A DNA stretch of 64,000 nucleotides from Candidatus Limnocylindrales bacterium (GCA_051306295.1 JBPPMZ010000069.1:17998-81997), one strand, 5' to 3'. Positions 4,370 to 53,383 are shown, counted from the first letter of the stretch. Numbers and translations: made by a program. The notes: generated by a model from the letters alone, not told the origin.

Positions 4370-4444
4370 GGCGGGGTGGAGCAGCGGCAGCTCGTCGGGC
4401 TCATAACCCGAAGGTCACTGGTTCGAATCCAGTCCCCGCAACCA
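4370..4444 (+). tRNA. tRNA-Met, initiator type (anticodon CAT). CCA is encoded.
   Basis: Cloverleaf: acceptor GGCGGGG/CCCCGCA with unpaired 1:72 (G.A), D stem GAGC/GCUC, anticodon stem UCGGG/CCCGA carrying three consecutive G:C pairs, loop CUCAUAA, T arm ACUGG-UUCGAAU-CCAGU, discriminator A, CCA. Near-identical to E. coli tRNA-fMet body. Confidence 0.85.
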
Positions 4445-4500: not shown

Positions 4501-4860
4501 TCACTCGCCGCGGCGTTGCCAGTCGGGCAGGTTCGCGGCGTTCCAGTCGAGGCGCTCGGAGTCCCCGGAGGCCGGGTCGATCGAGTAGACCTCCTGCGTG
4601 TTCTCCGTGCGCATCAGGACTCGATCGCCGGCGGGCGACCAGGTCATGATCAGGCCCGTTTCCTCGACGAAGGTCGGTGGCCCGCCGTCGAGGGGCGCGA
4701 TCTCCAGCCGCCGATCGGGCACGTTCTGAGCGACCTCTAGAATGGATTTCCCATCGGGCGACCAGCTCCATCCGAAGCAGCCATCGACGTTGATGATCCC
4801 GACCTCCGCGAAGGATGAGGCGAACGGCCCGGTCCAGCCGCACGACGGCCGCTCGGGCAA
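4501..4860 (-). pseudogene. Fragment of a beta-propeller (TolB/WD40-like, WSPDG repeat) protein. Probably an N-terminally truncated remnant.
   Basis: 119 aa with WSWSPDGKSIL, IAPLDGGPPTFV, WSPAGDRV blade-like repeats. Too short for a full propeller. Abuts the tRNA. Confidence 0.4.
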
Positions 4861-4971: not shown

Positions 4972-5109
4972 ATGACCAGGTCAGCCCGGGTGACCATTTC
5001 GCGACAGACGAGCGTGGCCGTGGCCCCAGGATGCAGGATTCCGCAGGCTGGGGCCACGGCCCGTGCTCATTCGTTCAAGACTGGTCAGCGGGGGTGACCT
5101 GGTCAGCCA
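4972..5109. repeat. Repeat A: 138-bp element with terminal inverted TGACCaGGTCA / TGACCtGGTCA motifs and a central 14-bp perfect hairpin (GGCCGTGGCCCCAG ... CTGGGGCCACGGCC)
   Basis: About 90% identical to copy B at 5677-5814. Direct orientation. Confidence 0.7.
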
Positions 5110-5125: not shown

Positions 5126-5500
5126 TCAGCCAGCCGGCGACGCGGGCAGCGCATCCAGGAAGCGAACGGTGTCGAGCGAGGCCCGGTCGACCTGGAAGTC
5201 CCTGCCAGCAAAGGTCAGGGCCTCGAAGGTCAAGGTCACGCCATCGGCCTCGGTCACGACCAGGATGTTGCGACCGCCGATCGAGTCGTTCCAGAACCCG
5301 CCCCCGGCCGCCTGGGGGACCCAGGTGAGGATGCCGGTTCGGTCATTGGAGTCGCCATCCAGTGTCCAGCACGGGGCCGTCAGGTTCTCGCCGAAGTGCA
5401 GCTCGACCTCGACGGCCCGATGCCCGTCCATCGTGAACTCCTCCTGGCGGACGACGGTGAACCGTGCGTCTCCGTTCAGGTACGCCAGGAACGCGTCCAT
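5126..5500 (-). CDS. Hypothetical protein, likely 5'-truncated (protein-like coding continues upstream of the Met to an in-frame stop near 5611)
   Basis: 124-aa ORF. Upstream in-frame translation ...IDAGDYTFKVWKDLDGFADPCDLEKGRLLIDPG-M looks like genuine protein but has no start codon before a TGA. Confidence 0.4.
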   Translation of the reverse strand: MDAFLAYLNGDARFTVVRQEEFTMDGHRAVEVELHFGENLTAPCWTLDGDSNDRTGILTWVPQAAGGGFWNDSIGGRNILVVTEADGVTLTFEALTFAGRDFQVDRASLDTVRFLDALPASPAG

Positions 5501-5676: not shown

Positions 5677-5814
5677 ATGACCAGGTCAGCCCGGGTGACC
5701 GATTCGCGACAGATGAGCGTGGCCGTGGCCCCAGGATGCAGGAATCCGCCATCTGGGGACAGGGCGCGTGCTCATTCATTCGAAACAGGTCATCGGGGTT
5801 GACCTGGTTATCCC
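5677..5814. repeat. Repeat B: second copy of the 138-bp TGACC/GGTCA-rich element (central hairpin partly degraded)
   Basis: Aligns with 4972-5109 base for base over the first ~85 nt with few mismatches. Confidence 0.7.
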
Positions 5815-7569: not shown

Positions 7570-8037
7570 TCACGGGGCGATCTTCGCGTACTGCCGCTCG
7601 AAATCGGCGTCGCGCAGTTCGCCGATCTGGATCGAGCGGATGACGCCCTCGCCATCGACGAAGTAGGTCTGTGGGCGTCCGGCCACCCGATACGTGGTCT
7701 TGTGCGCCTTGTCCGGATCCTCCACCGTGGGCCACGTCGCGCCGAAGTCGGCGACGAACAGGCGCGCCGGTTCCGGCGGGTCGTCGGTCAGGACGCCGAC
7801 GATCGCGAACTCGTCATCGGCATGCTCGGCGAGCTTGGCCAGGAACAGGGGGAACTCGTCGCGGCAGGGCACACACGACGGCCCCCAGAAGTTGATCAGC
7901 ACCGGCCGTCCGCGGTACGACGCAAGATCGAACGCCGCTCCATCCAGGGTGGTCCCCACGAGGGCCGGCGCCGCGCTGTCCACGGCGGCTCGCCGCGCCC
8001 CACCGTCCCGCGGACCCACGAACAGGTACACGCCCAC
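7570..8037 (-). CDS. TlpA/ResA-like thiol:disulfide oxidoreductase (thioredoxin fold, CVPC). The annotated GTG start lies inside a predicted TM anchor.
   Basis: WGPSCVPC motif. In-frame upstream sequence RRPTTPRRPILIALAIAVATTV (signal anchor) lies between a TAG at 8110-8112 and the first GTG at 8035-8037 with no ATG/GTG/TTG. Confidence 0.7.
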   Translation of the reverse strand: MGVYLFVGPRDGGARRAAVDSAAPALVGTTLDGAAFDLASYRGRPVLINFWGPSCVPCRDEFPLFLAKLAEHADDEFAIVGVLTDDPPEPARLFVADFGATWPTVEDPDKAHKTTYRVAGRPQTYFVDGEGVIRSIQIGELRDADFERQYAKIAP

Positions 8038-8109
8038 GGTCGTGGCGACCGCGATGGCCAGGGCGATGAGGATCGGACGTCGTGGCGTGGTCGGCCTCCG
8101 GCCAGGGTC

Positions 8110-9201
8110 CTACTGGACCGTGGCAGTCCCGGTCATCGACGGGTGGACCGTGCACAGGAAGGTGTACGCGCCGGCGGGCAGGGCCGGGACGTCGTAGACC
8201 TTGGTCGCGATGCCCGGGAAGATCTCACCGAGATACGCGACCGCTCCGCCGGCATCCTTCAGCTCGACGTTATGCGGGATCCCATCGTCGTCGTTGACGA
8301 AGGCGAGGGTGAACGGCTTGTCAGCCGGAGCCGTGATGCTCGTTGTCAGGAAGGCGATGCCCTTGGCCGTCACGGTGACGTCGGCGGCGGGTGGTGACGC
8401 CTCAGCACCGGCCGGTTCGCCCGAGGGTCCGCTGACTGGTGGGCCTGACGCGACGGGCACCTCCCCGCCACTCGCCCCACGAGGCGGCACCCAGCCACCC
8501 TGGATGAGGACGGCACCGACCAGCAGGATCCCCAGTCCGACGAAGAGCAGTGACGGCGTTCGCGGATCCGGGATGTTCTCGAGGTGGCCGGTCGTATCGG
8601 CCTCCTCCGTCTTGACGTACTCCTTGCGCGCATCCACGAGCCAGCCCAGCAGCGTCACGATGAGGGCGATGACGCCGACCGCCAGGACCCACTCCCCGAA
8701 GACCAGGCCGAGCATGAGCATCGCCGCGCCGAGCGCGCCCAGGAACGGCCGGTACGACGGTCCGGGCATGTGGACGCCGGGCGGGGGGCCGGGATGGATG
8801 ACGGCCGGCAGGGCCGGGGTCGTGGCGCCCGTGTCGTGCTCGTAGACGCGCAGCGCCTCGCGCAGCCAGTACAGCAGGCCGACCACCAGGCCGATCGCAC
8901 CGACGACCAGCACCAGGCCGCCGAACACGAGGCCCAGGAACAGCAGGAACGCTCCGAACGAGGCGACGATCGGCGCGAACGACGGCCCGGGCATGTGGAT
9001 CCCGGCGGGGGTCAGCGGCTCGATCCGGGCCTTGCCGCGCCGGGCCGGCGCCTGGTGGAAGAGCTTGAGGAAGACCCACAGCAGGATCGCGACGACCAGG
9101 AAGATGACCAGGATCGGAAGCAGTGCCACGACGGCACCCCAATCCGGGATGACGAACTGGGCCGTCAGCTCAAGGAAGCCGTTCCACAGGTCGTCGAGCA
9201 T
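8110..9201 (-). CDS. Membrane protein: tandemly duplicated CtaF (cytochrome oxidase subunit IV) C-terminal-like module fused to a C-terminal cupredoxin (type-1 copper) domain
   Basis: Two repeats of HMPGPS(F/Y)xP + TM helix pair (compare actinobacterial CtaF SPHSWWP region), then PHNV ... YTFLCTVHPSMTG cupredoxin ligand pattern (His, Cys, His, Met). Paralogous to the C-terminus of the CoxB gene. Confidence 0.65.
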   Translation of the reverse strand: MLDDLWNGFLELTAQFVIPDWGAVVALLPILVIFLVVAILLWVFLKLFHQAPARRGKARIEPLTPAGIHMPGPSFAPIVASFGAFLLFLGLVFGGLVLVVGAIGLVVGLLYWLREALRVYEHDTGATTPALPAVIHPGPPPGVHMPGPSYRPFLGALGAAMLMLGLVFGEWVLAVGVIALIVTLLGWLVDARKEYVKTEEADTTGHLENIPDPRTPSLLFVGLGILLVGAVLIQGGWVPPRGASGGEVPVASGPPVSGPSGEPAGAEASPPAADVTVTAKGIAFLTTSITAPADKPFTLAFVNDDDGIPHNVELKDAGGAVAYLGEIFPGIATKVYDVPALPAGAYTFLCTVHPSMTGTATVQ

Positions 9202-9215
9202 CGGTCAGGCGTCGA

Positions 9216-9410
9216 TCAGTCGTTCGAGGAACCGGCCGTCAGGACGTAGGCCATGATCGACATGGCGATCCCCAGGCAGAGCAGCAGCGTCACGCCGGCG
9301 TAATCGACGTGCCACCCGCCCACGGTCGGCACGACGAAGAAGATGATGCCGATGACGGCGAACGACGCGCCGATGACGATCGCGTTGCGGGAATGGCTCG
9401 CGGTCTTCAT
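9216..9410 (-). CDS. ctaF: Small 2-TM protein resembling the N-terminal half of actinobacterial cytochrome c oxidase subunit IV (CtaF)
   Basis: 64 aa from ATG at 9410: MKTASHSRNAIVIGASFAVIGIIFFVVPTVGGWHVDYAGVTLLLCLGIAMSIMAYVL. Positioned between ctaE and the CtaF-like/cupredoxin gene. Confidence 0.5.
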   Translation of the reverse strand: MKTASHSRNAIVIGASFAVIGIIFFVVPTVGGWHVDYAGVTLLLCLGIAMSIMAYVLTAGSSND

Positions 9411-9423
9411 GGCTTCAAGCCCC

Positions 9424-10086
9424 TTACGCGGCGGGCCCGGTCCCGGGCAGCAGATAGAGCAGGGAGAAGAGCAGGATCCAGACCACGTCGACGAAGTGCC
9501 AATACAGGCTGACCGCCTCGACCGCATCGTGGTGCTTGGCCGAGAACTGGCCGGCCATGCCGCGATAGAGCACGACGCCGAGCATGATCACCCCACCGAA
9601 GACGTGCGCGCCGTGGAAGCCCGTCAGGGTGAAGTACGTGGTCCCGAACGTCCCGGCCGAGAGCGTGATGCCCTCGCTGCCCAGGGCGGCGTAGTCGATC
9701 ACCTGCATGATCAGGAACACGATGCCGATGCTGAACGTGACCGCGATGTTCCGGATGAATGCCGTCCGGTCACCTCGACGGATGCCCCACACCGCGAACT
9801 GGCAGGTGAAGGACGAGAGGATCAACAGGACGGTGGCCGGCCCGACGAGCGGCAGGATCGCGAGGTGGAACGCCTCGTTGGTCTCAGGATTGAGCGGCGG
9901 CCACTGCGCGGCGTTCGCGCGGACGTTGAAGTAGGCCGCGAACAGGCCGGCGAAGAACATCACCTCGGAGGTGATGAACAGGAGCATCCCCAGGATGACG
10001 TTGCTGATGCCGCCGCCGGTCCCGTGCGCGGCGGCCGCCGGAGCGTGCTGGTCGGCCGTCGTCAGCGCGTGGCTATCGCTGGTCAC
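9424..10086 (-). CDS. ctaE: Cytochrome c oxidase subunit III
   Basis: GTG start at 10086 immediately after ctaD stop. 5 TM segments, conserved subunit III motifs (TGFHGAHV, LYWHFVDVVW). Confidence 0.85.
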   Translation of the reverse strand: MTSDSHALTTADQHAPAAAAHGTGGGISNVILGMLLFITSEVMFFAGLFAAYFNVRANAAQWPPLNPETNEAFHLAILPLVGPATVLLILSSFTCQFAVWGIRRGDRTAFIRNIAVTFSIGIVFLIMQVIDYAALGSEGITLSAGTFGTTYFTLTGFHGAHVFGGVIMLGVVLYRGMAGQFSAKHHDAVEAVSLYWHFVDVVWILLFSLLYLLPGTGPAA

Positions 10087-10088
10087 GG

Positions 10089-11726
10089 TCAGTGCCCCCC
10101 GGTCGCGGCGTCGCCGCGATGGCGCAGGTCGAAGACCGGGCGCTCCGAGCGGATCTCCGGCAGGCGATCGAAGTTGTAGGGCGGTGGCGGCGAGCTCGTC
10201 GCCCACTCCAACGTGTTGCCTTCCCACGGATCGTCGCCGGCCGGCTTGCCGCTGCGCAGCGAGACGAAGATGTTCCACAGGAGCGGCAGCATGCTGGCCG
10301 CGATCGTGAATCCGCCGACCGTGGCTGCCAGGTTCAGGTCGTTCCAGCCAGCGGTCGAGGCGTAATCGGCGATGCGTCGCGGCATCCCCGACAGCCCGAG
10401 CTCATGCATCGGGAAGAAGGTCAGGTTGAAGCCGATGAACATGAGCACGAACTGGACCTTGCCCAGACCCTCGCTCAGCATCCGGCCCGTCATCTTGGGG
10501 AACCAGTAGTACAGGCCGCCCATGATCCCGAACACCGAGCCACCGAACAGCACGTAGTGGATGTGGGCCACGACCCAGTACGTATCGTGGATGGCGAAGT
10601 CCACCGGCACCGACGCACTGAACGCGCCGTTGATGCCGCCGATGAGGAACATGCTCAGGAAGCCCAGCGCGAACAGGAGCGGGGTCTTGAGCATCAGCTG
10701 GCCGCGCCACAGGGTGAAGATCCAGTTGAACATCTTGACGCCGGTCGGGACCGCGATGAGGAACGTCATGAGGCTGAAGAACGGCAGGTAGACCGCGCCG
10801 GTCGTGAACATGTGGTGGGCCCACACGGAGAACCCGAGCGCCCCGATGCCGGCCGTCGCGAACACGAACGCCTTGTAGCCGAACAGCGGCTTGCGACTGA
10901 ACACCGGCAGGATCTCGCTGATCATGCCCATCGCCGGCAGGATCATGACGTAGACCGCCGGGTGCGAGTAGAACCAGAAGACGTTCTGCCAGAGGATCGC
11001 ATCGCCGCCGTTGGCGGGGTCGAAGAAGCTGCCGCCGAGATTGCGGTCGATGAAGAGCATGATCAGGGCGCTGGTGATGACCGGCGTCGCCATGAGCACC
11101 AGGACCGACGTCACGAGGACCGTCCAGGTCATGATCGGCATCCGGAACAGCGTCATGCCGGGAGCCCGCATCTTGAACATCGTGACCAGGAAGTTCACGG
11201 CGCCCAGGATCGAGCTCGTGCCGATGAGGATGAGCGCCACGATCCACAGGTCCTGCCCGGTCCCGACGGCCGCGAGGGGCCGGTCCTGGGCCAGCGGGCT
11301 GTAACTCGTCCAACCCGCCGCCGCCGACCCACCCGTCACGAACGATAGCAGGAGCAGGATGCCGCCCAGGGGCAGCATCCAGAACGACAGGGCATTGATG
11401 CGCGGGAAGGCCATGTCCGGCGCGCCGATCTGGAGCGGCACGATGTAGTTGCCGAAGCCCGCCAGCATCGGGATCACGAACAGGAAGATCATGAACGTGG
11501 CGTGCATCGTGAACAGTTCGTTGTAGGTCTGGTCGGTCACGAACTGGAGTCCCGGCTGTGCCAGCTCGACGCGCACACCCAGGGCGAGCAGGCCACCGAT
11601 GAAGAAGAACAGGAACGAGTTGATCACGTACAGGATCCCGATCTTCTTGTGATCGGTCGTGGTCACCCAGTCGTACAGCGTGGTGCGGTACGTCGGGGCG
11701 GCCGGGTGGAGCGCGGTGGTCGCCAC
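10089..11726 (-). CDS. ctaD: Cytochrome c oxidase subunit I (heme-copper oxidase)
   Basis: 545 aa, canonical subunit I sequence (His ligands, WFFGHPEVY-like region). GTG start with GAGGAG SD upstream. Confidence 0.95.
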   Translation of the reverse strand: MATTALHPAAPTYRTTLYDWVTTTDHKKIGILYVINSFLFFFIGGLLALGVRVELAQPGLQFVTDQTYNELFTMHATFMIFLFVIPMLAGFGNYIVPLQIGAPDMAFPRINALSFWMLPLGGILLLLSFVTGGSAAAGWTSYSPLAQDRPLAAVGTGQDLWIVALILIGTSSILGAVNFLVTMFKMRAPGMTLFRMPIMTWTVLVTSVLVLMATPVITSALIMLFIDRNLGGSFFDPANGGDAILWQNVFWFYSHPAVYVMILPAMGMISEILPVFSRKPLFGYKAFVFATAGIGALGFSVWAHHMFTTGAVYLPFFSLMTFLIAVPTGVKMFNWIFTLWRGQLMLKTPLLFALGFLSMFLIGGINGAFSASVPVDFAIHDTYWVVAHIHYVLFGGSVFGIMGGLYYWFPKMTGRMLSEGLGKVQFVLMFIGFNLTFFPMHELGLSGMPRRIADYASTAGWNDLNLAATVGGFTIAASMLPLLWNIFVSLRSGKPAGDDPWEGNTLEWATSSPPPPYNFDRLPEIRSERPVFDLRHRGDAATGGH

Positions 11727-11737
11727 GTGGATGCTCC

Positions 11738-12943
11738 TCAGTTGGCTGTGAGGGTGCCGGTCATGTTCGGGTGGACCGTGCAGACGAAGGTGTACGACCC
11801 GGCCGCCAGGGCCGGGACGTCATAGGTATTCTGGGCTGGCCCGCTGAAGATCTCGCCCTTGAAGACCTCGGGACCGGTCGGCGAACCCTCGTGGATGGCC
11901 ACGTTATGCGGCACGCCGTTGTCCTTGTTGTCGAACGTGATCTGGAACGGGGCGCCGCCGGTCACGCTGACCGCGGTCTGTTCGAAGGCGATGTTCAGGG
12001 CACTGATCGCAACGGGCGGCCCGGCTGGGGCTCCGGATGTCCCTGGCTCACCGGACGGTGCCGGTCCATCGGACGGAGGCGGCGGTGGCGTGGCCTGTGC
12101 TTCGGCGATCTTGGCCGCCAGCCAGGCGTCGAAGTCCGCGGGCGTCAAGGCGTTCACTTCGAACAGCATGATCCGGTGCCCAGCGCCGCACAGCTCAGCG
12201 CACTGGCCGCGGAACGTCTGGCCGACGTCCTTCTCGTTGACGTCGAATTCGAAGACGTTGGTCCGCCCGGGCACCACGTCCCGCTTGAACAGGAACTGCG
12301 GCACGTAGAAGGCGTGGATGACATCCGGGCTGGTGAGATACAGCTTCACGGAACGGCCCACCGGGACCGCCATGCCGCCGCCCTCGCCGGTCGGGAGGTT
12401 CTGGGTATAGAGCGGGGCCTTCGCCGTCTCGCCGGCGGCGGGCGGCTCCCAGTCCGCGGGCAGGTATTCGAACTGCCACTGGAACTGGCCCGCCACCGCC
12501 CGGATCTTGACGTCCGGCTGCGCGGAGACCGTTTCGACCGCGTTGAGCGTCTGCCACGAAGCGACGAACAGGAACGCGACGATGAGCGTCGGGACGACCG
12601 TCCAGATCAGCTCTGCCACGTTGTTGCCATGCGTCTGGACCGGAAGGGTGTCGTCACCGGGCTGGCGCCGATAGCGGATGACGGACCAGACGATGAGTCC
12701 TTCGACGAGGAAGAAGATGATGACCCCGATCAGGAAGACGATCGTGTACAGGTCACGGATCTGGGCGCCCTGGCTCGTCACCGCCTCCGGTGGATACAGG
12801 CTGGTCACGATCCGCTGCGACAGGCCGACCAGGTCGCCACCGCTCAGGAGTGCGAGCACCGCGACCGTGGCGACCAGCAACGCCCCGACCACGATGGCCG
12901 TGGTCGTAGCGGATGAGCGGCCGGTCCTGGGGGAACTCGCCAT
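11738..12943 (-). CDS. ctaC: Cytochrome c oxidase subunit II with an extra C-terminal cupredoxin (plastocyanin/azurin-like) domain
   Basis: CuA site CAELCGAGHRIM, then Pro-rich linker, then PHNVAIH ... YTFVCTVHPNMTG type-1 copper ligand pattern. Confidence 0.9.
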   Translation of the reverse strand: MASSPRTGRSSATTTAIVVGALLVATVAVLALLSGGDLVGLSQRIVTSLYPPEAVTSQGAQIRDLYTIVFLIGVIIFFLVEGLIVWSVIRYRRQPGDDTLPVQTHGNNVAELIWTVVPTLIVAFLFVASWQTLNAVETVSAQPDVKIRAVAGQFQWQFEYLPADWEPPAAGETAKAPLYTQNLPTGEGGGMAVPVGRSVKLYLTSPDVIHAFYVPQFLFKRDVVPGRTNVFEFDVNEKDVGQTFRGQCAELCGAGHRIMLFEVNALTPADFDAWLAAKIAEAQATPPPPPSDGPAPSGEPGTSGAPAGPPVAISALNIAFEQTAVSVTGGAPFQITFDNKDNGVPHNVAIHEGSPTGPEVFKGEIFSGPAQNTYDVPALAAGSYTFVCTVHPNMTGTLTAN

Positions 12944-13274
12944 GCAGGGTCCTCAACGGTTCGGTCGGGGCACACACCCGGACCAGGCGCGGGTCAAGAA
13001 CGGGTAGCGGTCCGGCCCACGGGGGTCGGACGGCGCCATGATACCCGGAGCGTGGGCCGCTCGCGTGGTCCTGCGTTGTGGCTCGGTGGGAGCAGGCCAG
13101 GGGCGCGCGACCGGCGATGTTCCCCCCAGTACCGCATCCGCGATAGACACCTCGTGGAATCGCGACGAAACGACGACGCCGTGTCGATCCTGCAAGGGAC
13201 CACGCACGTTCGTTCAGGATCCGGTACTGGCCGCACCGCCGAGGCGCGGGATCGGTTCGTGCGACGATGCGGGC

Positions 13275-14297
13275 ATGCGCACCCGTCGGCCCGTGGCCCT
13301 CCTCGCGGCCTGGCTCGCCGCCGCTCCGGCCGTCAGCGCCCATGGCGCGACCCCATCGGAACCGCCGACCGCCGCCTCGCTCCTGTTCGAGTGGACGCTC
13401 GAGCCGCTGCCCACGCTCGGGATCGTGGTCGCGCTCGCCGTCTGGTGGCGGCTCGTTGGTCGGGTGAACGCGGCCCACCCGGCGAATCCGGTGCCGCGTC
13501 GGCGGTCGGTGGCGTTCGCCCTGGGGCTGGCGGCCATCGCTGTCGCGCTGTTGTCCGGCATCGATGCCTACGACACGACGCTGTTCTCCGTGCACATGGT
13601 CCAGCACGTCCTGCTCACGTTCGTCGCCGCGCCGCTCATCGCGCTGTCCGGTCCGATCACCCTCCTGCTCCGTGCCTCGACGCCCGCCGTGCGTCAGCGC
13701 TGGATCCTCCCGGTCCTCCACTCGCGCACGCTCCGCGTGTTGGCCTTCCCGGTCGTGGCCTGGGTGGTGTTCGCCGCGGTGATGTGGGCGAGCCACTTCT
13801 CGCCGCTCTTCGATGCCGCGTTGGAGGACCCCCTCCTCCACGACCTGGAACACGGCCTGTTCCTCGGGACCGCGCTGCTGTTCTGGTGGCCGGTCGTGGC
13901 CGTCGATCCCGGCCCGTGGCGGATGCCGCACCCCGTCCGGGCCTTGTACGTGTTCCTGCAGATGCCCCAGAACACGTTCCTCGCGGTCGTCCTGCTGGGG
14001 GCGACGAACGTGCTCTACCCGCATTACGCGTCGACCGGCCGCACCTGGGGTCCCACGCCGCTCGCCGACCAGGGCACGGCCGCGGGCATCATGTGGATCG
14101 CCGGCGACGTGGTGTTCCTCATCGCGATCCTGGGGGTGATCGGAGCCTGGATGCGATCGGAGGCACGCGAGACGGACCGGACGGACCGACGGGCGGACGT
14201 CGAGCGGGCGGCCATCCGCAGCCGCGAACGGGAGTTGGCCGATCGCCTGACCCGCGAGCGCGAGGACGCTCAGTCCGGGAGTGGCGTCTCCAGGTAG
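13275..14297 (+). CDS. ctaG: Cytochrome oxidase assembly factor, Caa3_CtaG/CopD-like polytopic membrane protein
   Basis: Signal peptide, 7-8 TM, HMVQH motif. Divergent from ctaC. Confidence 0.6.
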   Translation: MRTRRPVALLAAWLAAAPAVSAHGATPSEPPTAASLLFEWTLEPLPTLGIVVALAVWWRLVGRVNAAHPANPVPRRRSVAFALGLAAIAVALLSGIDAYDTTLFSVHMVQHVLLTFVAAPLIALSGPITLLLRASTPAVRQRWILPVLHSRTLRVLAFPVVAWVVFAAVMWASHFSPLFDAALEDPLLHDLEHGLFLGTALLFWWPVVAVDPGPWRMPHPVRALYVFLQMPQNTFLAVVLLGATNVLYPHYASTGRTWGPTPLADQGTAAGIMWIAGDVVFLIAILGVIGAWMRSEARETDRTDRRADVERAAIRSRERELADRLTREREDAQSGSGVSR

Positions 14298-15681: not shown

Positions 15682-15852
15682 ATGGCCACCGCGAAGGATC
15701 CCGTCTGCGGCATGGAGGTCGATACCACGACCTCGCTCCTGTCCCTGGAGCATGACGGCACGACCTACTGGTTCTGTGGCAAGGGCTGCCTGCTCGAGTT
15801 CAAGGACGACCCCGACAAGTACCTCGCCGAGGACTATCAGCCAAGCATGTAA
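15682..15852 (+). CDS. YHS/TRASH domain metal-binding protein (56 aa). Missed by ORF track (too short).
   Basis: MATAKDPVCGMEVDTTTSLLSLEHDGTTYWFCGKGCLLEFKDDPDKYLAEDYQPSM. GGAGG SD 8 nt upstream of ATG. Confidence 0.75.
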   Translation: MATAKDPVCGMEVDTTTSLLSLEHDGTTYWFCGKGCLLEFKDDPDKYLAEDYQPSM

Positions 15853-15867
15853 CAGCCCGACGGCCCT

Positions 15868-15990
15868 GCGTTCCTGCCAGTACCCGGATCGCGATGAACG
15901 TGCGTGGTCCCGCGCAGGATCGACAGGTTCCTGTCAGTTGGTGATCGGTCCACACGGGACTCGTAGCGAATCCGGTACTCAGGGGAACGC
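15868..15990. repeat. X-family element copy 1: 123 bp with about 20-bp imperfect terminal inverted repeats (GCGTTCCTGCCAGTACCCGG ... CCGGTACTCAGGGGAACGC). Internal sequence diverged from copies 2 and 3.
   Basis: Shares both termini and length with 37823-37945. Lies 3' of the YHS gene. Confidence 0.6.
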
Positions 15991-16236
15991 AGGCCGTCTG
16001 GGCCGCCCACCCGGCCTGGCGCGCGATCCGCGATAAGTCGCAGCTAAGCGGTCATGAGGACACTGCGCATCCGCGCTGGTGATCGGGCACTCCTTGGTGG
16101 GATCGCATCGGCGCCCCAGGCCGGCCAGATGCCGGCGGAGGTACTCGACGTGCGTGCCCGGATCCTCGCCTCGGCCATGGCCGTCCTCCCCGTCCTCGTC
16201 GCCTTCTTCGAGTTCGGTCGGCGATGGCACTGAGCC

Positions 16237-32653: not shown

Positions 32654-33469
32654 CTAGATGCCGACGTCCGATGATGTCGAGACCCGGTGCACGACGACAT
32701 CGACCGAACCATCGCGGCCGCGGACGGCGATGGTTCGACGATCCTCGGCCGCGGTCGAGCGGCCCGCGGCCTCGGCGGCTGCCACGCTGATGACGACCTC
32801 GCCGACGGCTGCTTCGGCGACCAGCCGGGCCGTGGTGTTGACCACGTCGCCCAGCGCAGTGAAGTCATCCACCGCCCCGACCGGGCCGCTCGTGCCGACG
32901 TAGGCCTCGCCCGTGTGCACAGCTGCTCCGACCGGGATGGTGCCGCGTGGCGTGGCATCGCGGCGTCCGCAGCGCTCGGAGAGATCGATGGCGGCGGCGA
33001 TAGCGGATCTCGCGTGGTCCGGTCCGGAGATGCCACCGAAGAACAGGCCGATCACCTCGTCGCCAACGAATTTGTCGACGATGCCGTCGTGACCCAGGAC
33101 CGTATCGGAGGCGATCCGGTAGAAGCGGTCCAGGAAGGCATGAAAATCGCGCGGCGCGAGCCGCTCGCCGATGGTGGTCGAACCGCGAATGTCCGCGAAC
33201 AGCAGCGTGATCGGGATCTCAGCTCCGGTGAGGCCGTGCCGTCGGAATTCGACGATGCACTTCTGGCAGAGTGCCGGGTTGGCGGCGAAGCGCGCATAGC
33301 CGAAGTGCTTCAGCACCGTGCCGCCCACGCCGGCAAACGGCGCGGCGCACAGCTTGCAACGCGGTGAACTGGGGAAACGCTTCATGGCGCGTCGCATCCC
33401 ACCCAGGCCGGGGTGCTCTCCTGTCAGGACGGCCCGCATCTCGTCCTCGGGCATCGGGGTCGGCGGCAC
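32654..33469 (-). CDS. Class III adenylate/guanylate cyclase with N-terminal zinc ribbon
   Basis: CKLC ... CQKC, then LLFADIRGST ... FVGDEV cyclase core. Confidence 0.8.
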   Translation of the reverse strand: MPPTPMPEDEMRAVLTGEHPGLGGMRRAMKRFPSSPRCKLCAAPFAGVGGTVLKHFGYARFAANPALCQKCIVEFRRHGLTGAEIPITLLFADIRGSTTIGERLAPRDFHAFLDRFYRIASDTVLGHDGIVDKFVGDEVIGLFFGGISGPDHARSAIAAAIDLSERCGRRDATPRGTIPVGAAVHTGEAYVGTSGPVGAVDDFTALGDVVNTTARLVAEAAVGEVVISVAAAEAAGRSTAAEDRRTIAVRGRDGSVDVVVHRVSTSSDVGI

Positions 33470-33650
33470 GGGAGATACCGTACGCTGTCGCCGTCCTGGG
33501 TGGAAGGACCATCCTGAGCGTCAGGCCTTGCGGCGCCCAGGGGCTGTCCTGGACGATCACGCGGTGCGTCCCGGAACCGGACCACGGTCGGGTCGCGGTG
33601 GGACGTCCGGGCCCCTCCCGCCCAGGGAGCGTCGGGCCCACGCTTCGGTC

Positions 33651-35081
33651 ATGCCGACGCCCTCGCGCACCCGTGTTCGATCGACGGTCGTGACCAGCTT
33701 GGTCGCGGTCGTCGTGTTGTCGACGGTGATGATCGGGTCGGCGTCGGCAGCCACCACCGACCCCGACCGCGATGGCCTGACCAGCGCCTACGAGCGTGAC
33801 TGGACCCGGACCGACCCATCGCGCAAGGACACCGACCGCGATGGCACCCCCGACGGCAGCGAGGACCCGGACGCCGACCGCCTGATCAACAAGCAGGAGG
33901 CGACGACCGGCACGCGGCCGCGCCGCGCGGACACGGACCGCGACGGCCTGCGCGACGATCGCGAGAACGCCGATGGCGACGCCCTCTGGAACTGGAGCGA
34001 GTTCCGGGCCGGCACCCATCCGCGCCGGGGCGACAGTGACCGCGATGGGCTTGGCGACGGCAAGGAGGACCCGGACCGCGACGGCCTGTCGAACGCCACG
34101 GAACAGCGCGTCGGTACGCATCCGCGCCGCGCCGACACCGACGGCGACGGCTACAGCGACGCCGCCGAGCGATCGGCCGGCACGAACCCGCTGGACCCGG
34201 CCAGCCACCCGACACCGGCCCCCGGCACCGCCCCGACGCTCCCTGGCGCGCCCGCCTGTCCGGTCTTCCCCGCGGACAACGTGTGGAACGTTCGCGTCGA
34301 TGGTCGGTCGGTGGCGGCGAACTCCGCCACGATGATCTCGGCCATCGGGCTGGACCGCGGCCTGCACATGGACTTCGGGTCGTACGCCGGCTACGGGATC
34401 CCGTATCAGGTCGTGACGGCGGCCACGCCGCGCTCCACGGTCGCCTTCGAGTACGCGGACGAGAGCGACCAGGTCATGTATCCGATCCCGGCCTCGCCAT
34501 CGATCGAGGGCGCAGGCGCGGGCGGAGATCGCCATATCCTCATGGTCGACAAGGACGCGTGTCGGCTGTACGAGCTGTTCGCCGCGGAGAAGGTCGGCAG
34601 CCAGTGGACCGCTGGCAGCGGGGCGACCTGGGACCTGCGCTCGAATGCCCTGCGAGCGGCCGGTTGGACCAGCGCCGATGCGGCCGGCCTGCCGATCCTG
34701 CCCGGCCTGGTCCGCTACGACGAGGTCGCCGCCGGCGCGATCACCCACGCGCTGCGGTTCACGACCAACCAGACCAAGCGCGCGTACGTCTACCCGGCGC
34801 GGCACTACGCGAGCTCGTCGACGTCGACGTCACTGCCGCCGATGGGCATGCGGGTTCGGCTCAAGGCGTCGTACGACACGTCTGCCTTGTCGCCGCACGC
34901 TCGGGCGATCGCGGTTGCGCTCCAGCGCTACGGGATGATCCTGGCCGACAACGGGTCGCCCTGGTACGTGAGTGGTATGAGCGACCCCCGCTTCGACGAC
35001 GATGTCCTGCACGAGCTTGATGTCATCACCGGGCGGGATCTCGAGGTCGTGGACACCAGCGGGTTGGTCAACGGGCCGTAG
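33651..35081 (+). CDS. Secreted protein with thrombospondin type-3-like calcium-binding repeats (DTDRDG/DSDRDG) and a C-terminal domain of unknown function
   Basis: Signal peptide, six or more DxDxDG repeats. Confidence 0.6.
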   Translation: MPTPSRTRVRSTVVTSLVAVVVLSTVMIGSASAATTDPDRDGLTSAYERDWTRTDPSRKDTDRDGTPDGSEDPDADRLINKQEATTGTRPRRADTDRDGLRDDRENADGDALWNWSEFRAGTHPRRGDSDRDGLGDGKEDPDRDGLSNATEQRVGTHPRRADTDGDGYSDAAERSAGTNPLDPASHPTPAPGTAPTLPGAPACPVFPADNVWNVRVDGRSVAANSATMISAIGLDRGLHMDFGSYAGYGIPYQVVTAATPRSTVAFEYADESDQVMYPIPASPSIEGAGAGGDRHILMVDKDACRLYELFAAEKVGSQWTAGSGATWDLRSNALRAAGWTSADAAGLPILPGLVRYDEVAAGAITHALRFTTNQTKRAYVYPARHYASSSTSTSLPPMGMRVRLKASYDTSALSPHARAIAVALQRYGMILADNGSPWYVSGMSDPRFDDDVLHELDVITGRDLEVVDTSGLVNGP

Positions 35082-37034: not shown

Positions 37035-37796
37035 ATGACCGACCTTCGAACGCGCATCCGCGCCGGCGAGACCCTCATCGGATCGTTCGCCGATCTCGCT
37101 TCGCCGCTGGCCGCGGAGCTCCTGGGCCAGGCCGGCTTCGATTGGACCGTCCTCGACCTGGAGCATGGCGAATCGACGGAAGCTGACCTCCTGGCGATGC
37201 TGTATGCCGTCGGAACGACGCCTATGACGGCCGTCGTCCGTGTGCCGTCCGCCGAGCGGCTGCGGGTCGGGCGCGCCCTGGATCTGGGCGCCGCCGGGAT
37301 CATGTTGCCGCAGCTCCAATCCATCGAAGGTGTTCGCGAGGCCGTGTCGTACCTGCGCTACCCACCAGTCGGCCAGCGCGGGGTGGCGTTGCGGACCCGA
37401 GGCGGCGGGATGGGTTCGCTGGGGCATCCTGACGTGGCCCGGGTCGTCAACGAGCGCATCGTGGGTATCGTCCAGATCGAATCGGCCGGGACGGTCGCCG
37501 ATGCTGACGCCATCGCGGCGCTCGACGAAGTGGACGTGCTTTTCGTGGGGCCGGCGGACCTTTCGCACAACCTTGGCGTCCCCGGCCGGTTCGACGACCC
37601 GACGTACCTCGCGGCGCTACGGACCGTGCTCGACGCGTGCTCGAACCATGGCAAGGCGGCCGGCATCCTCATCTACGACGCGGCCGTGCTGGCCCGCCAC
37701 CTCGATCTCGGGTTCCGGTTCATCGGTCTCGGCTCGGAGGGCTCGTACGTGAGTGCCGGGGCGCGGGCCATGCTGGCGGCGGCTGGCCGCACCTGA
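37035..37796 (+). CDS. HpcH/HpaI aldolase / citrate lyase beta-like
   Basis: PF03328-like TIM barrel motifs (LDLEHG, VVRVP, QIES). Confidence 0.8.
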   Translation: MTDLRTRIRAGETLIGSFADLASPLAAELLGQAGFDWTVLDLEHGESTEADLLAMLYAVGTTPMTAVVRVPSAERLRVGRALDLGAAGIMLPQLQSIEGVREAVSYLRYPPVGQRGVALRTRGGGMGSLGHPDVARVVNERIVGIVQIESAGTVADADAIAALDEVDVLFVGPADLSHNLGVPGRFDDPTYLAALRTVLDACSNHGKAAGILIYDAAVLARHLDLGFRFIGLGSEGSYVSAGARAMLAAAGRT

Positions 37797-37822
37797 TCAG
37801 GAGTCGCGGCCGCCGCCCGCCT

Positions 37823-37945
37823 GCGTTCCTCTGAGTACCGGAATCGCGACGAACCCTTCGTGGATCGCCGACCAAACGACACGATCCTTTCGATCCTGCG
37901 TCGCACCGTGCACGTTCATACGGATCTCGGTACTCACCGGAACGT
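37823..37945. repeat. X-family element copy 2 (123 bp, TIRs GCGTTCCTCTGAGTACCGG ... CCGGTACTCACCGGAACG)
   Basis: Near-identical to copy 3. Distinct flanks on both sides. Confidence 0.7.
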
Positions 37946-38121
37946 GGCGGGTCACCACTAGGCCGCCGATCGCCGGGCGGCGTCCGCGTAGTCGGCATAA
38001 CGGGCCGGCGACCGGCGCCCATCGAGCCGGCTCCGGATGAGCCACTCACGACCGCGGCTCGATGGGTCGATCAACGCCATCCCGCGACCCGCCGCCGGCG
38101 AAATCCCACCCGGCATCAGCG

Positions 38122-38757
38122 TCAGGCCATCTCGCGTGCCCGAACCGGAAAGGCAGTGTTCAAGTACGGCCGGTTGGCCCACAGCACTCGCTCGACCTCG
38201 TCACTGGCCAAGACGAGCAGCCAGGTCTGGACTCGCCGTGGCTCCCAGCCGAGCTCTCGTGCGCGGTCCCAGGCCGCCCGCTCATACCAGCCGAGTTGGC
38301 GCTCCACGGCGCCGAGATCATCGAGCCGCGTCTTGACCTCGATTACAAGAAGCGTCCGGGTCCTGGGGTCGAAGGCCAGCAGGTCGATCCAACCGTGCGA
38401 CCGACCGTGGACGATCTCGATCTCGCGCGCCGCGTCCCACCCCTGGCTGCGCAATCGACGCTCGACATAGGCCGAACATCGAGCGTGGACGGCATCGCGC
38501 ACCCGCGGCCCGCCGATGATGGTCGGGCGGCGGATCGCCAGGTCGACCTCGAGACCGAGGGCCTGGGCGATCGCTTCTACGCGACGTATCGATGGATTCG
38601 CATCGCCGCGCTCGACCCTGGCGATATAGCTCCGGGTGACCCCCGCCCGATCGGCGACGGCCTGCTGCGTCAGGTCCAACGCCAGGCGCGTGTCGAGGCA
38701 GGCCCGGGCGAATGTCGTCCGGACCGGCTGCCGTGCGGGGCCGGTACTCGATGTCAT
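38122..38757 (-). CDS. XRE-family HTH domain fused to a PD-(D/E)xK nuclease-fold domain
   Basis: From ATG at 38757: HTH TQQAVADRAGVTRSYIARVERG. C-terminal core GWIDLLAFD ... LLVIEVK (Asp, then Glu-x-Lys). The 288-aa track ORF over-extends into the repeat. Confidence 0.6.
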   Translation of the reverse strand: MTSSTGPARQPVRTTFARACLDTRLALDLTQQAVADRAGVTRSYIARVERGDANPSIRRVEAIAQALGLEVDLAIRRPTIIGGPRVRDAVHARCSAYVERRLRSQGWDAAREIEIVHGRSHGWIDLLAFDPRTRTLLVIEVKTRLDDLGAVERQLGWYERAAWDRARELGWEPRRVQTWLLVLASDEVERVLWANRPYLNTAFPVRAREMA

Positions 38758-38837
38758 GCGGACATTGGAGCAGAGGGCCCTTACCCCGGACTTACCCGGG
38801 GCTCTTCCGGCCCGTCGCCGTTCCACCGCGCGCCCGG

Positions 38838-38958
38838 TGTGCCCCTGAGTACCGGAATCGCGACGAACCCTTCGTGGATCGCCGACCAAACGACACGATC
38901 CTGCCGATCCTGCGTCGCACCGTGCACGTTCATACGGATCTCGGTACTCACCGGAACG
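38838..38958. repeat. X-family element copy 3 (about 121 bp), direct orientation relative to copy 2
   Basis: Differs from copy 2 by about 3 substitutions internally. 5' outer TIR partly degenerate (GTGCCCCT vs GCGTTCCT). Confidence 0.7.
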
Positions 38959-39023
38959 TTGGCCACCCTGACCATCGGGAGCCCCCACGTCACCGAGCGC
39001 GACGACGGACTACACTTCGCGAC

Positions 39024-39524
39024 GTGACCGACCTCACCGAACGTGCGGTCGCCCGTCGCGTCCCATCGCTGACCGACGAGCGCCTCCGTGTCCTCAGCCG
39101 TCGCCAGCCTGTGACCGTCCCATCGGGCACGACGCTGGCCGACTGCGTTCGCGCCATCCAGCGGTCCGGCACCGGCGATTCCGTGTTCGTGTGCGACCCG
39201 GAGGACCGCCTCCTGGGCGTCCTCACAGAACGTGACATCTTCAGCCGCATCGTCGGTGGGACCGTGGACCTGACCCAGCCGGTCGAGAACTTGATGACGA
39301 CCGAGCCGCGCACCCTGGACCTCGACCAGACGATCCGCGACGCCATCGAGCTCATGCAGACCGGCCGATATCGCAACGTCCCCGTCGTCGACGAGCATGG
39401 CCACCTTGCCGGGGTCGTGCGCCAATCCGACATCATCAGGTACCTGGCCGAGTCGTTCCCCGAAGAGCTGCTCAACCTCCCACCGAGGCCACACCAGCGC
39501 ATGAAGGAGCCAGAAGGGGCGTGA
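39024..39524 (+). CDS. CBS-pair domain protein
   Basis: GTG start. Two CBS motifs. GTGA-coupled to korA. Confidence 0.7.
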   Translation: MTDLTERAVARRVPSLTDERLRVLSRRQPVTVPSGTTLADCVRAIQRSGTGDSVFVCDPEDRLLGVLTERDIFSRIVGGTVDLTQPVENLMTTEPRTLDLDQTIRDAIELMQTGRYRNVPVVDEHGHLAGVVRQSDIIRYLAESFPEELLNLPPRPHQRMKEPEGA

Positions 39525-50031: not shown

Positions 50032-50595
50032 CTAGACGGCGCGTCGAGGCACCGTGACGCCCTCCCGCGCAAGGAGCTGCTGTTTGCGATCCAGGGCGTC
50101 GCCACGCCCGCCGGGTTCGTCGCCGCCATAGCCGCCCAGGGTCCCATCGGCTGCGATGACGCGATGGCAGGGGATGAGCAGGGCGATGGGACAGCGACCG
50201 ACCGCCCCGCCGACGGCTCGCGCGGCTCGCGGCGCGCCTACGCGCCGTGCGATCTCGCCATAGCTCGCCGTTTCGCCCCAGCCGAGCGAACGTACCGCCC
50301 CAAGGACGGCCTGATCGAAGGTGGGACGATCGGCGAGGTCGAGCGGCACGGAGGCGAGATCCTGCGACCGCCTGGTCAGGATGGCGTCGATCGCCGGCCG
50401 CCATCGACGCAGGAAGTCAGCCGCCGGCCCCTCCCTCACCGACTCGATCGAGCCCAGGCGTCGACCCAGATCACGCTCCATGGCCGACTCGTCGCCCCAC
50501 CACTCGGCCGCCACCACACCACGTTCCGTGGCGGCCACGGTCAACGGTCCATCGGGGCCGGGTAGGACCAGGACGGCGATCGGTTTGGCGCTCAT
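50032..50595 (-). CDS. ogt: Methylated-DNA-protein-cysteine methyltransferase
   Basis: PCHRV active-site motif. Confidence 0.85.
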
Positions 50596-50647
50596 CGTCG
50601 CGGCAGTGTGCCTGAACCTTGCCACCGCTCGCTTGCCGTCGTCTGCT

Positions 50648-50664
50648 ATACTCCCCTGGAGTAT
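50648..50664. promoter_or_regulatory. 17-bp perfect palindrome ATACTCC-CCT-GGAGTAT overlapping a TATACT -10 box and the copA ATG. Candidate metal-responsive operator.
   Basis: Perfect 7-3-7 inverted repeat. Same half-sites as at 15644-15660. Confidence 0.5.
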
Positions 50665-53383
50665 GAGAACCTTGAGCCCGACCCCTCCGCCAACCACCGA
50701 GATCCAGCTGCCCATCGAGGGCATGACCTGCGCGTCGTGCGTGAATCGCATCGAGCGATTCCTGAACAAGACGGACGGCGTCGAAGTCGCGACCGTCAAC
50801 CTCGCCACGGAGATGGCGACCATCCGCTACCTGCCCGACGTCGCCGGTCGCGAGGCGTTCGTCGCCGCGGTCGAGGCCGCCGGCTACGACGTCCGTGCCG
50901 TCCAGGAGCGGACCGCCGACGCCCCGCCCGTGACCCTCGCCGACGAGTTCACGGCCGAGGACCTGGAGCGCGAGCGCCACACCCGAACCCTGCTGCGCGA
51001 GGCGGTCGTCTCGATCGGCGTCGCGTTGCTGATCATGGTCGCGATGTTCACCCCGCAGACCAGCGTCGCGATGGAGGACATCAACCGGATCGTCCTGGTC
51101 CCGGCCACGATCATCCAGGTCTGGGCCGGCCGGCGCTTCTATCGGGCCGCGTGGCGGGCGATCAGCCACCGGACCACGAACATGGACACGCTCGTCGTGG
51201 TCGGCACGAGCGCCGCCTGGCTGTACAGCGTGTTCGTGACGTTCTTCCCCGAGGTCATCCACGAGGCCGGGCTGCACCCCGAGACCTACTTCGACTCGTC
51301 GACCATCATCATCGGCCTCATCCTGCTGGGTCGCTGGCTGGAGGCCCGGGCCAAGAGCAGCACGACCGGCGCGATCCGGCGCCTCATCGGCCTGCAGGCC
51401 ACCACGGCCCGGGTCGTCCGCGACGGTCGGGAGGAGGACGTCGCTCTGGAGGCGGTCGTCGTCGGCGACCTGCTCCGGGTCCGGCCGGGCGACAAGATCC
51501 CGGTCGACGGCGTCCTGGTCGAGGGCGCGTCGTCGGTCGATGCCAGCATGCTCACCGGCGAGCCGATGCCCGTCGAGAAGGGTCCCGGCGACGAGGTCAT
51601 CGGCGCGACCCTGAACACCACCGGCACGTTCGTCATGCGCGCCACCGCGGTCGGGCGCGACACCGCCCTGGCCCGGATCGTGGACCTGGTCAGCCGCGCC
51701 CAGGGCAGCAAGGCCCCCATCCAGCGTCTGGCCGATCGCATCGCCGAGGTCTTCGTGCCGATCGTGCTCGTCGTCGCGCTCGGGACGTTCGCGGTCTGGC
51801 TGCTGTTCGGCCCGGACCCGCGCCTGACTCTGGCGCTGACGTCGTTCATCGCGGTCGTGGTCATCGCCTGCCCGTGCGCCATGGGCCTCGCCACGCCGAC
51901 CGCGATCATGGTCGGGACGGGTCGCGGCGCGGAGGCCGGCATCCTCATCCGCGGCGGCGAAGCGCTTGAGACCGCCCATCGCGTGGACGCCGTCATCCTC
52001 GACAAGACCGGCACCCTGACCCTGGGCCGACCGACCGTCGCCGAGGTCGTGGCGGTGGCGGGCTTCAGCGCCCGCGACGTGCTGGACCTGGCGGCCTCGG
52101 CGGAGGCCGGCAGCGAGCATCCACTGGGTGCGGCGATCGTCGGACGCGCGCGCCAGGACGAGCTCGGCTTCGGCAAGATCGAGGCCTTCGAGTCGGTGAC
52201 CGGCGGCGGCGTGCGCGCGACCATCCGGACCGAGGCGGGCGAGCGTCACGAGGTCCTCGTCGGCAATCCACGCCTGCTCGGCAACGCGGGCATCGACCTC
52301 GCGCCGCTCGACGAGGCGATCTCCACTGCCACGGCCGCCGCCCGGACGCTGGCCATCGTGGCGGTGGACGGCCGCGCCGCCGGCCTGTTGGCGATCAGCG
52401 ACCCGGTCAAGGCTGAGTCCGCGATCGCCGTCCGGGAGCTGCTGGCTGCCGATATCGAGGTCTGGCTCGTGACCGGCGATGCCCGTGCCACGGCCGAGGC
52501 CGTTGCCGCCCAGGTCGGCATCCCGGCACACAACGTCCTCGCCGAGGTGCTGCCCGCCGACAAGGTCGCCGTCGTCGAGCGACTGCAGGCCCGTGGCCGG
52601 ATCGTGGCCATGGTCGGCGATGGCATCAACGACGCCCCGGCCCTCGCCCAGGCGGACCTCGGGATCGCGATCGGGACCGGGGCGGACGTGGCCATCGAGG
52701 CCGCCGGCGTGACCCTGGTCGGCGGCGATCCGCGCGGCGTCCCGGCGGCGATCGGGCTGTCGCGCGCGACGATGGGCGTCATCCGCCAGAACCTCTTCTG
52801 GGCGTTCGCCTACAACGTGCTGCTCATCCCGGTCGCCATGGGCGTGCTCTTCCCCGCGTTCGGCGTCCTGCTCTCGCCGGCCCTCGCGGCCGGAGCCATG
52901 GCCCTCTCGTCGGTCAGCGTCGTGGCCAACTCGCTCCGTCTGCGCCGCTATGACGCTCGTCCGGATGCAGCCCACCGGGTCGCCAGCGGGGGTGCGGTCG
53001 CGCGGGTGCGTGAGGCCTGGTTCCTGCTGGTCATCGCGCTCGCCTCGTTCGGTGTCGCCGGCGGCGTCCTGGCGGCCGACCAGGCGATCGAGGCCGGCGC
53101 CCAGCGTGTCGCGGTCCGCGCCGCCGATGTCCGTTTCATGCCCGCCGAGATCCGCGTGCAGGCAGGCCGGTTCGTGGTCGTCGAGTTCACCAACGACGAC
53201 CCGATCTTCCACGACTGGATGGTGGAAGGGGTCGCCAACGTTGACGCGGGCGCGCGGCCAGGCCAGACCCAGAAGATCCGCTTCCGGATCGACCAGCCAG
53301 GCACGTACGAGATCCTGTGCAGCGTCGAAGGCCATGCCGAGGCGGGCATGATGGGCACTCTGATCGTGGAGCCGGCCGAGTAG
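50663..53383 (+). CDS. copA: Copper-translocating P1B-type ATPase with N-terminal HMA domain and an additional C-terminal cupredoxin-like domain
   Basis: [27 protein letters not shown] motifs. C-terminal FHDW ... [17 protein letters not shown] (His, Cys, His, Met). Confidence 0.9.

Follow-up and report, generated by a model that had tools for sequence, protein, structure and literature searches.

A 123-bp element downstream of a YHS gene in Candidatus Limnocylindrales is a complete inverted copy, probably of a lineage-specific family of palindromic DNA repeats

The window, by which we mean the whole 64-kb stretch of DNA analysed here, comes from a MAG of Candidatus Limnocylindrales, an uncultured class of the Chloroflexota. 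A 123-bp element, copy A, lies at 15868-15990, 15 nt beyond the stop codon of a convergent YHS gene. It is one of six copies in the window, all of them intergenic, of which four are of one type (X) and two belong to a related subfamily (Y). The genes and copies are listed below; scores in bits are those of the covariance models described further on.

4370-4441, tRNA gene
4978-5100, plus strand, copy Y1, of the related 123-bp subfamily; 81 bits with model R2
5683-5805, plus strand, copy Y2, 87% identical to Y1; 83 bits with model R2
13117-13239, plus strand, copy D, X type, with a degenerate outer 3' box; 120.6 bits
13275-14297, plus strand, ctaG-like gene (Caa3_CtaG), with copy D 35 nt upstream
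15682-15852, plus strand, YHS gene, its stop 15 nt before copy A
15868-15990, minus strand, copy A, full-length, inverted relative to B, C and D; 116.6 bits on the minus strand and 29.8 on the plus strand
15868-15886, no strand, terminal box pair of A, GCGTTCC-TGCC-AGTACCCG, complementary to the other end
15972-15990, no strand, terminal box pair of A, CCGGTACT-CAGG-GGAACGC
37823-37945, plus strand, copy B, X type, between the stop of the HpcH aldolase gene (37796) and the 3' end of the XRE-nuclease gene; 141 bits
37958-38757, minus strand, gene for an XRE-family HTH protein with a PD-(D/E)xK-like nuclease domain, flanked by B and C; candidate partner of the repeat
38837-38959, plus strand, copy C, X type, 96% identical to B; 138 bits; upstream of both the XRE-nuclease start, by 79 nt, and the CBS-korAB operon start (39024), by 64 nt

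A copper and respiration theme runs through 7570-14297 and 50321-53383, with AhpC/redoxin, cytochrome oxidase subunits, ctaG, the YHS protein, and a P-type ATPase that carries an HMA and a C-terminal cupredoxin domain. A PhdYefM-PIN toxin-antitoxin pair was observed at 53634-54355. Four tandem 102-nt coding repeats at 33828-34190 lie in ORF 33318-35081, which has bacterial TSP3 repeats, and are unrelated to the 123-bp element. Paralogous segments were observed at 8126-8316 (in a cytochrome-oxidase subunit IV/cupredoxin gene, 8110-9201) and 11754-11950 (in ORF 11738-12943, probably COX2 by synteny with the relative L040), and again at 55094-55620 and 56393-56937, in the adjacent ORFs 54907-56172 and 56206-57480. 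Both pairs are ordinary gene duplications.

The two Y copies lie just downstream of the tRNA gene and bracket a small ORF (5126-5500, minus strand) that has no Pfam or NCBIfam match. Beside them, ORF 4501-4860 resembles by eye a truncated PD40/TolB-like fragment, and it had no Pfam match. The arrangement of Y1 and Y2 by the tRNA gene looks like an island or a scar at the tRNA.

The preliminary description had placed A in the family of the B and C copies on the strength of its length and its ends, and had held that its central ~70 nt differ. The 123-bp element was present where claimed, and its termini (GCGTTCCTGCCAGTACCCGG ... CCGGTACTCAGGGGAACGC) do match those of B and C. When A was aligned with these two copies in the same orientation, agreement was seen only at the ends and at scattered positions. 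In a repeat search of the window, 15869-15994 was paired in inverted orientation with 37819-37944 (76% complementary over 126 nt) and with 38831-38958 (74% over 128 nt). The full-length, ungapped identity of A and B was 0.50 in direct and 0.75 in inverted orientation. Over the central 70 nt it was 0.30 in direct orientation, which is the chance level, but 0.73 in inverted orientation, a value equalled in none of 20000 shuffles. The full-length inverted identity of A to the B and C copies was 74-76%, and the reverse-complemented A aligned to the other X copies across all 123 positions without a gap. The core is conserved, because A matches B across the central 70 nt once it is reverse-complemented, and the termini match in either orientation because the two ends are inverted repeats of each other. 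The variable core of A is an orientation artefact, and A is a complete copy on the opposite strand. The GATCG motif does recur in the copies as had been noted; it is no feature of its own, and belongs to a conserved block, TCGATCCTGC, and to the complement of TCGATCCTGC.

A covariance model was built from the four X copies (R1) and run on the whole window with filters off. The four X copies scored 116-141 bits, and the next hits were 5683-5805 and 4978-5100, exactly 123 nt each. A broader covariance model (R2) returned exactly six copies in the window, and nothing further down to an E-value of 0.05. The family, which the preliminary description would have given up had there been no additional copies, therefore stands, and A belongs to it. 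The count of three members in that description is incomplete, since a fourth X copy (D) and the two copies of the related subfamily are also present. The terminal boxes of Y1 and Y2 (AGGTCAGC...GGTGACC) are unlike those of X, the length is the same, and the internal motifs GATTCGCGACAGA..GCGTGG and GTGCTCATTCAT are common to the Y and X copies.

We also observed that one reading frame is open through all four X copies (37753-38040, 38712-39524, 13038-14297 and 15800-15955; for example ...CRSC.GPRTF...). Mechanical ORF calling therefore stretches real genes or makes spurious ORFs at the copies, and this read-through is a likely source of annotation errors in these MAGs.

All copies share one layout. 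An outer box of 7 nt, GYGTTCC or a variant of it, is separated by 4 nt from a second box, which is AGTACCG in the X copies and GGAACGC in the others; a spacer of ~85 nt then leads to the complementary boxes at the opposite end. The box pairs can be written overall as GYGTTCC-N4-(GGAAC or AGTACC)-like, with one pair at each element end, and the ends themselves read GCGTTCC, ACGTTCC, ATGTTCC or AGGTCAG. In most subfamilies the box pair of each end forms a small palindrome, GTTCC-N4-GGAAC, and the centres of the two terminal palindromes are ~105 bp apart.

Sixteen sequences could be aligned over 123 columns with zero gaps. The outer 7-nt and inner 7-9-nt boxes are complementary between the two ends (helix 1, 75.7% paired in the 16 copies), so that the element has the terminal inverted repeats by which a MITE is recognised. 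On this alignment, 70.9% of the cells agreed with fold-back pairing, as against 31-44% when the partners were slid by 1-3 columns. Both-sided changes were found in 27 of the 37 pairs, and none of 500 shuffles matched any of the observed pairing measures. Thus, the palindromic architecture has been maintained by compensatory change despite the differing box sequences of the subfamilies. The ~85-nt spacer also retains fold-back pairing, so the entire element is able to form one long hairpin or cruciform. When folded as single-stranded DNA, the X copies surpassed shuffles by a modest margin (z -1 to -2.9) and the Y copies by a large one (z -5 to -7.5, with Y1 at z -7.5).

Relatives were represented by orthologous loci (numbered with L) from related metagenomic contigs, which were gathered through neighbouring proteins and then searched with both covariance models. 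X-type copies of exactly 123 nt were found in L027 (three, two of them in tandem) and in L039, L040 and L041 (one each). More diverged copies of 121-124 nt were found in L031, L034, L036, L037, L046 and L047, and a second copy of this kind in L040 (19409-19532). The length across loci was 121-124 bp, nearly all copies being exactly 123, and the density outside the window was 0-2 copies per 20 kb in the surveyed loci.

Sites A, B and D were each filled in some relatives and empty in others, which is the insertion polymorphism looked for in a MITE. Site A, in the gap between the permease gene and dksA, is filled in the window, L040 and L041 and empty in L038 and L039. The three A-site copies have the same orientation and are 64-66% identical; the flanks are unalignable between relatives, the element itself excepted. 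The PALP proteins beside this site are 84% identical to that of the window in L040/L041 and 91% identical in L038/L039. Site D, upstream of ctaG, is filled in the window and L039 and empty in L038, L040 and L041. Site B, in the HpcH-XRE gap, is filled in the window by an X-type copy and in L031 by a copy of another subfamily; it is empty in L034 and L042, where the 3' ends of HpcH and XRE overlap. At the same site in L027 (~8905-8940, just past the HpcH stop) we observed a ~30-nt 5' fragment of an X-type element (GCGTTCCGCTGAGTACCGCATCTGGAACGAG), a sign of decay or partial deletion.

At the borders of 11 copies no direct repeats, and hence no target-site duplication, were found. In A, B and the L040 copy the hairpin continues into the flanks for 6-9 complementary bases, which differ in sequence from copy to copy, and these copies may have been inserted into pre-existing palindromes such as terminator stems. 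Over 4.6 kb, L038 and L039 share 98.5% identity, with the D site filled in L039 and empty in L038. Homology between them breaks near ctaG, and their comparison gave no clean filled/empty junction in otherwise identical flanks.

The YHS gene beside copy A is absent in L038/L039 and altered or truncated in L040. Since it is not kept among the relatives, the permease-dksA intergenic region is a hotspot of change. A non-coding block of ~80 nt at ~16010-16110 (minus strand ...GGAGTGCCCGATC...CATGACCGCTTAGCTGCGACTTATC), between the ABC permease gene and dksA, is conserved in L038-L041, while the adjoining intergenic DNA is unalignable. It had no Rfam match; a small RNA, a leader or a very short ORF would each be conceivable.

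DNA patterns drawn from the conserved blocks of the X subfamily were also run against wider collections. The pattern CGATCCTGC..GCACGTTC..GGTAC gave five matches in genome contigs and GATCCTGC..ACC..GCACGTTC gave 20 in metagenome contigs. All were rejected as chance matches, the other features of the element being missing, and the latter pattern had no match in viral contigs. Such patterns are too lineage-specific for the collections scanned, which do not hold the source genome. A palindrome scan of the loci was overly strict and was superseded by the broader covariance model.

The gene that lies between B and C encodes a protein with an XRE-type HTH, for which C.AhdI and C.BclI, controller proteins of restriction-modification systems, are the closest matches. 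Beyond the HTH, an AlphaFold2 model (mean pLDDT 84.7) shows the order alpha-beta-beta-beta-alpha-beta, and residues D125, E140 and K142 are invariant in 27 homologues. The Pfam matches of the nuclease domain were all sub-threshold and fell in seven families, UPF0102 (23.2 bits; cutoff 23.6), NucS_C, VRR_NUC, PDDEXK_10, Hjc, NOV_C and HSDR_N_2, the first five of which we take to be PD-(D/E)xK-type nuclease or resolvase families. A Foldseek search with the protein was dominated by the HTH and gave weak matches to the R2 retrotransposon protein; a profile search with the nuclease domain against PDB sequences gave no match. As judged from these sequence and model features, the XRE protein is probably a sequence-specific nuclease.

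In this MAG the gene is frameshifted near 38125, with the C-terminal 55 residues in another frame down to 37958. Homologue residues 1-211 and 211-251 accordingly match it in different frames, and it is either a pseudogene or the product of a MAG assembly error. More than 1000 homologous proteins were found at E-values up to 0.001; the best 120 listed are 60-100% identical over 87-100% of the query and about 255-290 residues long. A C-terminal extension conserved in distant homologues (...ARAPADT..PMNVKP...), first read as read-through of the element, is actually antisense read-through into the HpcH gene. The plasmid collection yielded neither a full-length homologue of the protein nor DNA that matched the locus.

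The window holds one copy of this gene. Among the relatives it occurs in two contexts, HpcH-XRE-(EamA)-CBS-korAB (the window, L027, L031, L033-36 and L042-45) and aminotransferase-XRE-HTH_17-kdp (L037 and L046), and L030 is a relative without it. The gene is thus syntenic in two contexts and vertically inherited, and is no roving cassette.

We observed that the elements cluster by this gene. In eight non-redundant XRE-containing loci (~178 kb), 11 of the 16 elements lie within ~160 bp of it, upstream, downstream or on both sides, and in both conserved contexts. In five loci the proximal element end is 46-79 nt upstream of the XRE start codon. No element was found in the 20 kb of L030, and none was detectable at the XRE locus of L042-L045. 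We estimate the clustering to be non-random at p ~1e-6, taking all intergenic DNA as eligible and with most loci sharing ancestry; because the association is partly inherited within the two syntenic contexts, the effective number of independent observations is small. The copies that flank the gene are alike in any one genome but not from genome to genome.

Upstream of the XRE gene in L036 we observed a diverged 121-nt element with GGAAC-N5-GTTCC ends (region 9861-10018), followed by two further CCCAGTTCC boxes up to the annotated XRE start, at a spacing of ~18-22 nt; as CCAGTTCC, three further boxes are seen at the gene start. This series looks like an operator array.

The preliminary description had offered a MITE family or a structured RNA as the two readings of the element. 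We consider the second quite improbable. It would make the element a multi-copy non-coding RNA, either an sRNA or a cis-regulatory leader, transcribed from the strand on which D, B and C read 5'-GCGTTCC..., with A on the minus strand. The predicted RNA folds of the window copies are indeed more stable than shuffles (z -2.2 to -4.8) and the helices are backed by covariation, but Rfam 15 gave only the tRNA in the window at gathering score and, over the copies at E<10, nothing except one 23-nt chance match. In RNAalifold with the four window copies the covariation term was better on the proposed strand, a signal that was lost with nine X-type copies (20 G-U pairs vs 17 A-C mismatches, p=0.74), while single-sequence energies for A, B and C were better on the opposite strand. 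There is therefore no evidence of a strand-specific RNA, and that candidate was rejected. D and C lie just upstream of co-directional genes (ctaG and CBS-korAB), but orientation relative to genes is mixed, with a convergent gene ahead of B and with the YHS gene antisense to, or convergent with, A; the copies that flank the XRE gene are direct in the window and inverted to each other in L037. A and D are kept at orthologous sites with their orientation unchanged, yet the orthologous sites of close relatives are empty and L027 has tandem copies. Consensus scans found neither a sigma-70-like promoter nor a T-run terminator beside any copy. The structured-RNA reading of the 123-bp element is thus not supported. 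The MITE-like reading survives, on the dispersed intergenic copies, the terminal inverted repeats, the copies in related genomes and the filled and empty sites. The premise that both readings had shared, conserved ends around a variable core, is false because the core is conserved after A is reverse-complemented.

Two further explanations make use of the ends of the element and of the XRE gene. The terminal 14-bp palindromes are found at a fixed spacing in 16 of 16 aligned copies, and at ~105 bp, or ten helical turns, they could be paired operators for an XRE-family protein in a non-mobile regulatory DNA module. Solo copies would then point out the members of a regulon (ctaG/COX, YHS-dksA, CBS-korAB), and the DNA would loop between the two sites. 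Such a module, which we hold to be unlikely, would fit an HTH nearest to controller proteins that bind paired palindromic operators, the proximal box ahead of the XRE start in five loci, the extra boxes in L036, and the retention of copies at orthologous promoter-proximal sites. It leaves unexplained the fold-back of the 85-nt spacer with its compensatory changes (helices 2-4), the tandem copies, the positions of A and B downstream of convergent genes, and the invariant catalytic residues of the nuclease; moreover, the window has few stand-alone GTTCC-N4-GGAAC sites (6 at one mismatch, 1.8 expected), none of them by an obvious target. Integron attC sites, for example the Vibrio VCRs, are about 123-126 bp long, and the element resembles them in its imperfect dyad symmetry, in a structure conserved above sequence and in the ability to bracket single genes. 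The XRE gene (between B and C) and ORF 5126-5500 (between Y1 and Y2) might accordingly be mobile cassettes at attC-like or dif-like recombination sites, a reading to which we give very little credence. Each of these gene-sized units is bracketed by direct copies (96% and 87% identity), each end has the form of a 'simple site' with inverted 5-7-bp arms around a short spacer, the overall length and imperfect dyad symmetry recall long attC sites, and the content of the HpcH-CBS interval varies among relatives. The core motifs, however, are reversed (5'-GYGTTCC ... GGAACRC-3', with GTT first and AAC last, against RYYYAAC ... GTTRRRY in attC), and no more than 4 nt separate the boxes. In its two contexts the bracketed XRE gene keeps its synteny and has been inherited vertically, L030, which lacks it, has no residual site, no integrase or recombinase domain was found among the scanned ORFs of the window, and the copies form no cassette arrays and are scattered among housekeeping genes.

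The best reading of the family is an undescribed REPIN/MITE-like palindromic DNA repeat. We think it likely that A is an oppositely oriented, full-length member of such a family of 123-bp imperfect-palindrome DNA repeats, specific to the Candidatus Limnocylindrales lineage. REPINs are REP doublets that form hairpins and are associated with RAYT genes (Bertels and Rainey; PMC3116915, PMC3337134). They are defined by two short imperfect palindromes, inverted and separated by a spacer, the whole forming a hairpin, and the repeats that flank a RAYT gene are alike within a genome and different between genomes (PMC3337134). Most REPs carry a GTAG or CGTC tag at one end (PMC3733652). Similarly, our 123-bp element has inverted imperfect palindromes at its ends, and its spacer varies in sequence while the hairpin is kept. 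Its size is in keeping with the REPIN range of about 90-120 bp, it is intergenic and dispersed, and its sequence types differ by genome. The syntenic gene flanked by its copies, present once in the 64-kb window, may correspond to the single-copy gene flanked by repeats in REP-RAYT systems. In contrast to those systems, the flanked gene encodes HTH_3/HTH_31 and a PD-(D/E)xK-like domain instead of an HUH-Y1 (RAYT) transposase, and no RAYT or Y1 transposase was present among the scanned ORFs of the window. The termini also lack a GTAG or CGTC tag, the copy number is apparently modest in the surveyed loci, and the host is an uncultured Chloroflexota class.

Comparisons with other repeats are by architecture, and no sequence relationship is expected. 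ERIC/IRU elements are imperfect palindromes of ~127 bp in enterobacteria, and Correia elements are MITE-like repeats. Our element is like both in its fixed length near 120-130 bp, in being an imperfect palindrome that is intergenic and found in both orientations, and in the presence or absence of copies at given sites; it differs from palindromic MITEs in that no target-site duplication was found (11 copies). No parent insertion sequence with matching ends was found in the window, where the XRE-nuclease gene is the only gene regarded as bracketed by copies that has an identified product. No transposase, integrase or RAYT was found in 54 of the 56 predicted ORFs of the window, or in the YHS, XRE and CBS genes, which were scanned separately. 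The family fails as a MITE on the target duplication and the parent insertion sequence, and as a REPIN on the RAYT and the tag, and we have therefore filed it as a dispersed palindromic intergenic repeat that is neither in the proper sense.

With the family read as such a repeat, it most likely spread, now or formerly, as non-autonomous DNA into intergenic regions, and it would now persist as a small population of old, diverged copies. That the copies are old and diverged is suggested, for example, by A, which sits at the orthologous site in two genomes whose neighbouring PALP proteins are 84% identical to that of the window. A and D are retained at orthologous sites with conserved blocks amid unalignable flanks, and this could reflect function rather than selfish persistence.

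The XRE-HTH/PD-(D/E)xK nuclease is a candidate for the factor that recognises the element. The controller proteins C.AhdI, C.BclI and C.Esp1396I, to which its HTH is most similar, bind paired palindromic sites (C-boxes) upstream of their own genes. Here, unlike C-boxes, the palindromes terminate a dispersed 123-bp repeat, the protein joins its HTH to a nuclease-like domain, and, in contrast to restriction-modification loci, no methyltransferase or restriction gene lies near the XRE gene. A controller-protein-like HTH dimer would bind the terminal palindromes, where the nuclease domain would nick or cut, and the XRE gene would also be autoregulated through binding at the copy that precedes its start. 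It is conceivable, and we offer it as a tentative proposal more doubtful than not, that the elements and the XRE nuclease form a REPIN/RAYT-like partnership built on a different enzyme, in which the nuclease recognises the terminal palindromes and maintains, moves or processes the repeat, with co-evolving subfamilies.

The main result of this analysis is a correction: copy A has no diverged core and is an ordinary full-length copy on the other strand. The family to which it leads is an undescribed palindromic repeat of an abundant, uncultured Chloroflexota class that is widespread in soil and freshwater. Repeats of 123 bp such as these break MAG assemblies, and gene callers are misled by the ORFs that run through them. 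Should the association with the XRE gene prove functional, REPIN-like populations would be tied to a class of enzyme beyond the HUH transposases. Such a link, if true, would bear on how repeat populations of this kind arise and persist, and would mean that the arrangement of a domesticated nuclease with an intragenomic repeat population had arisen independently a second time.
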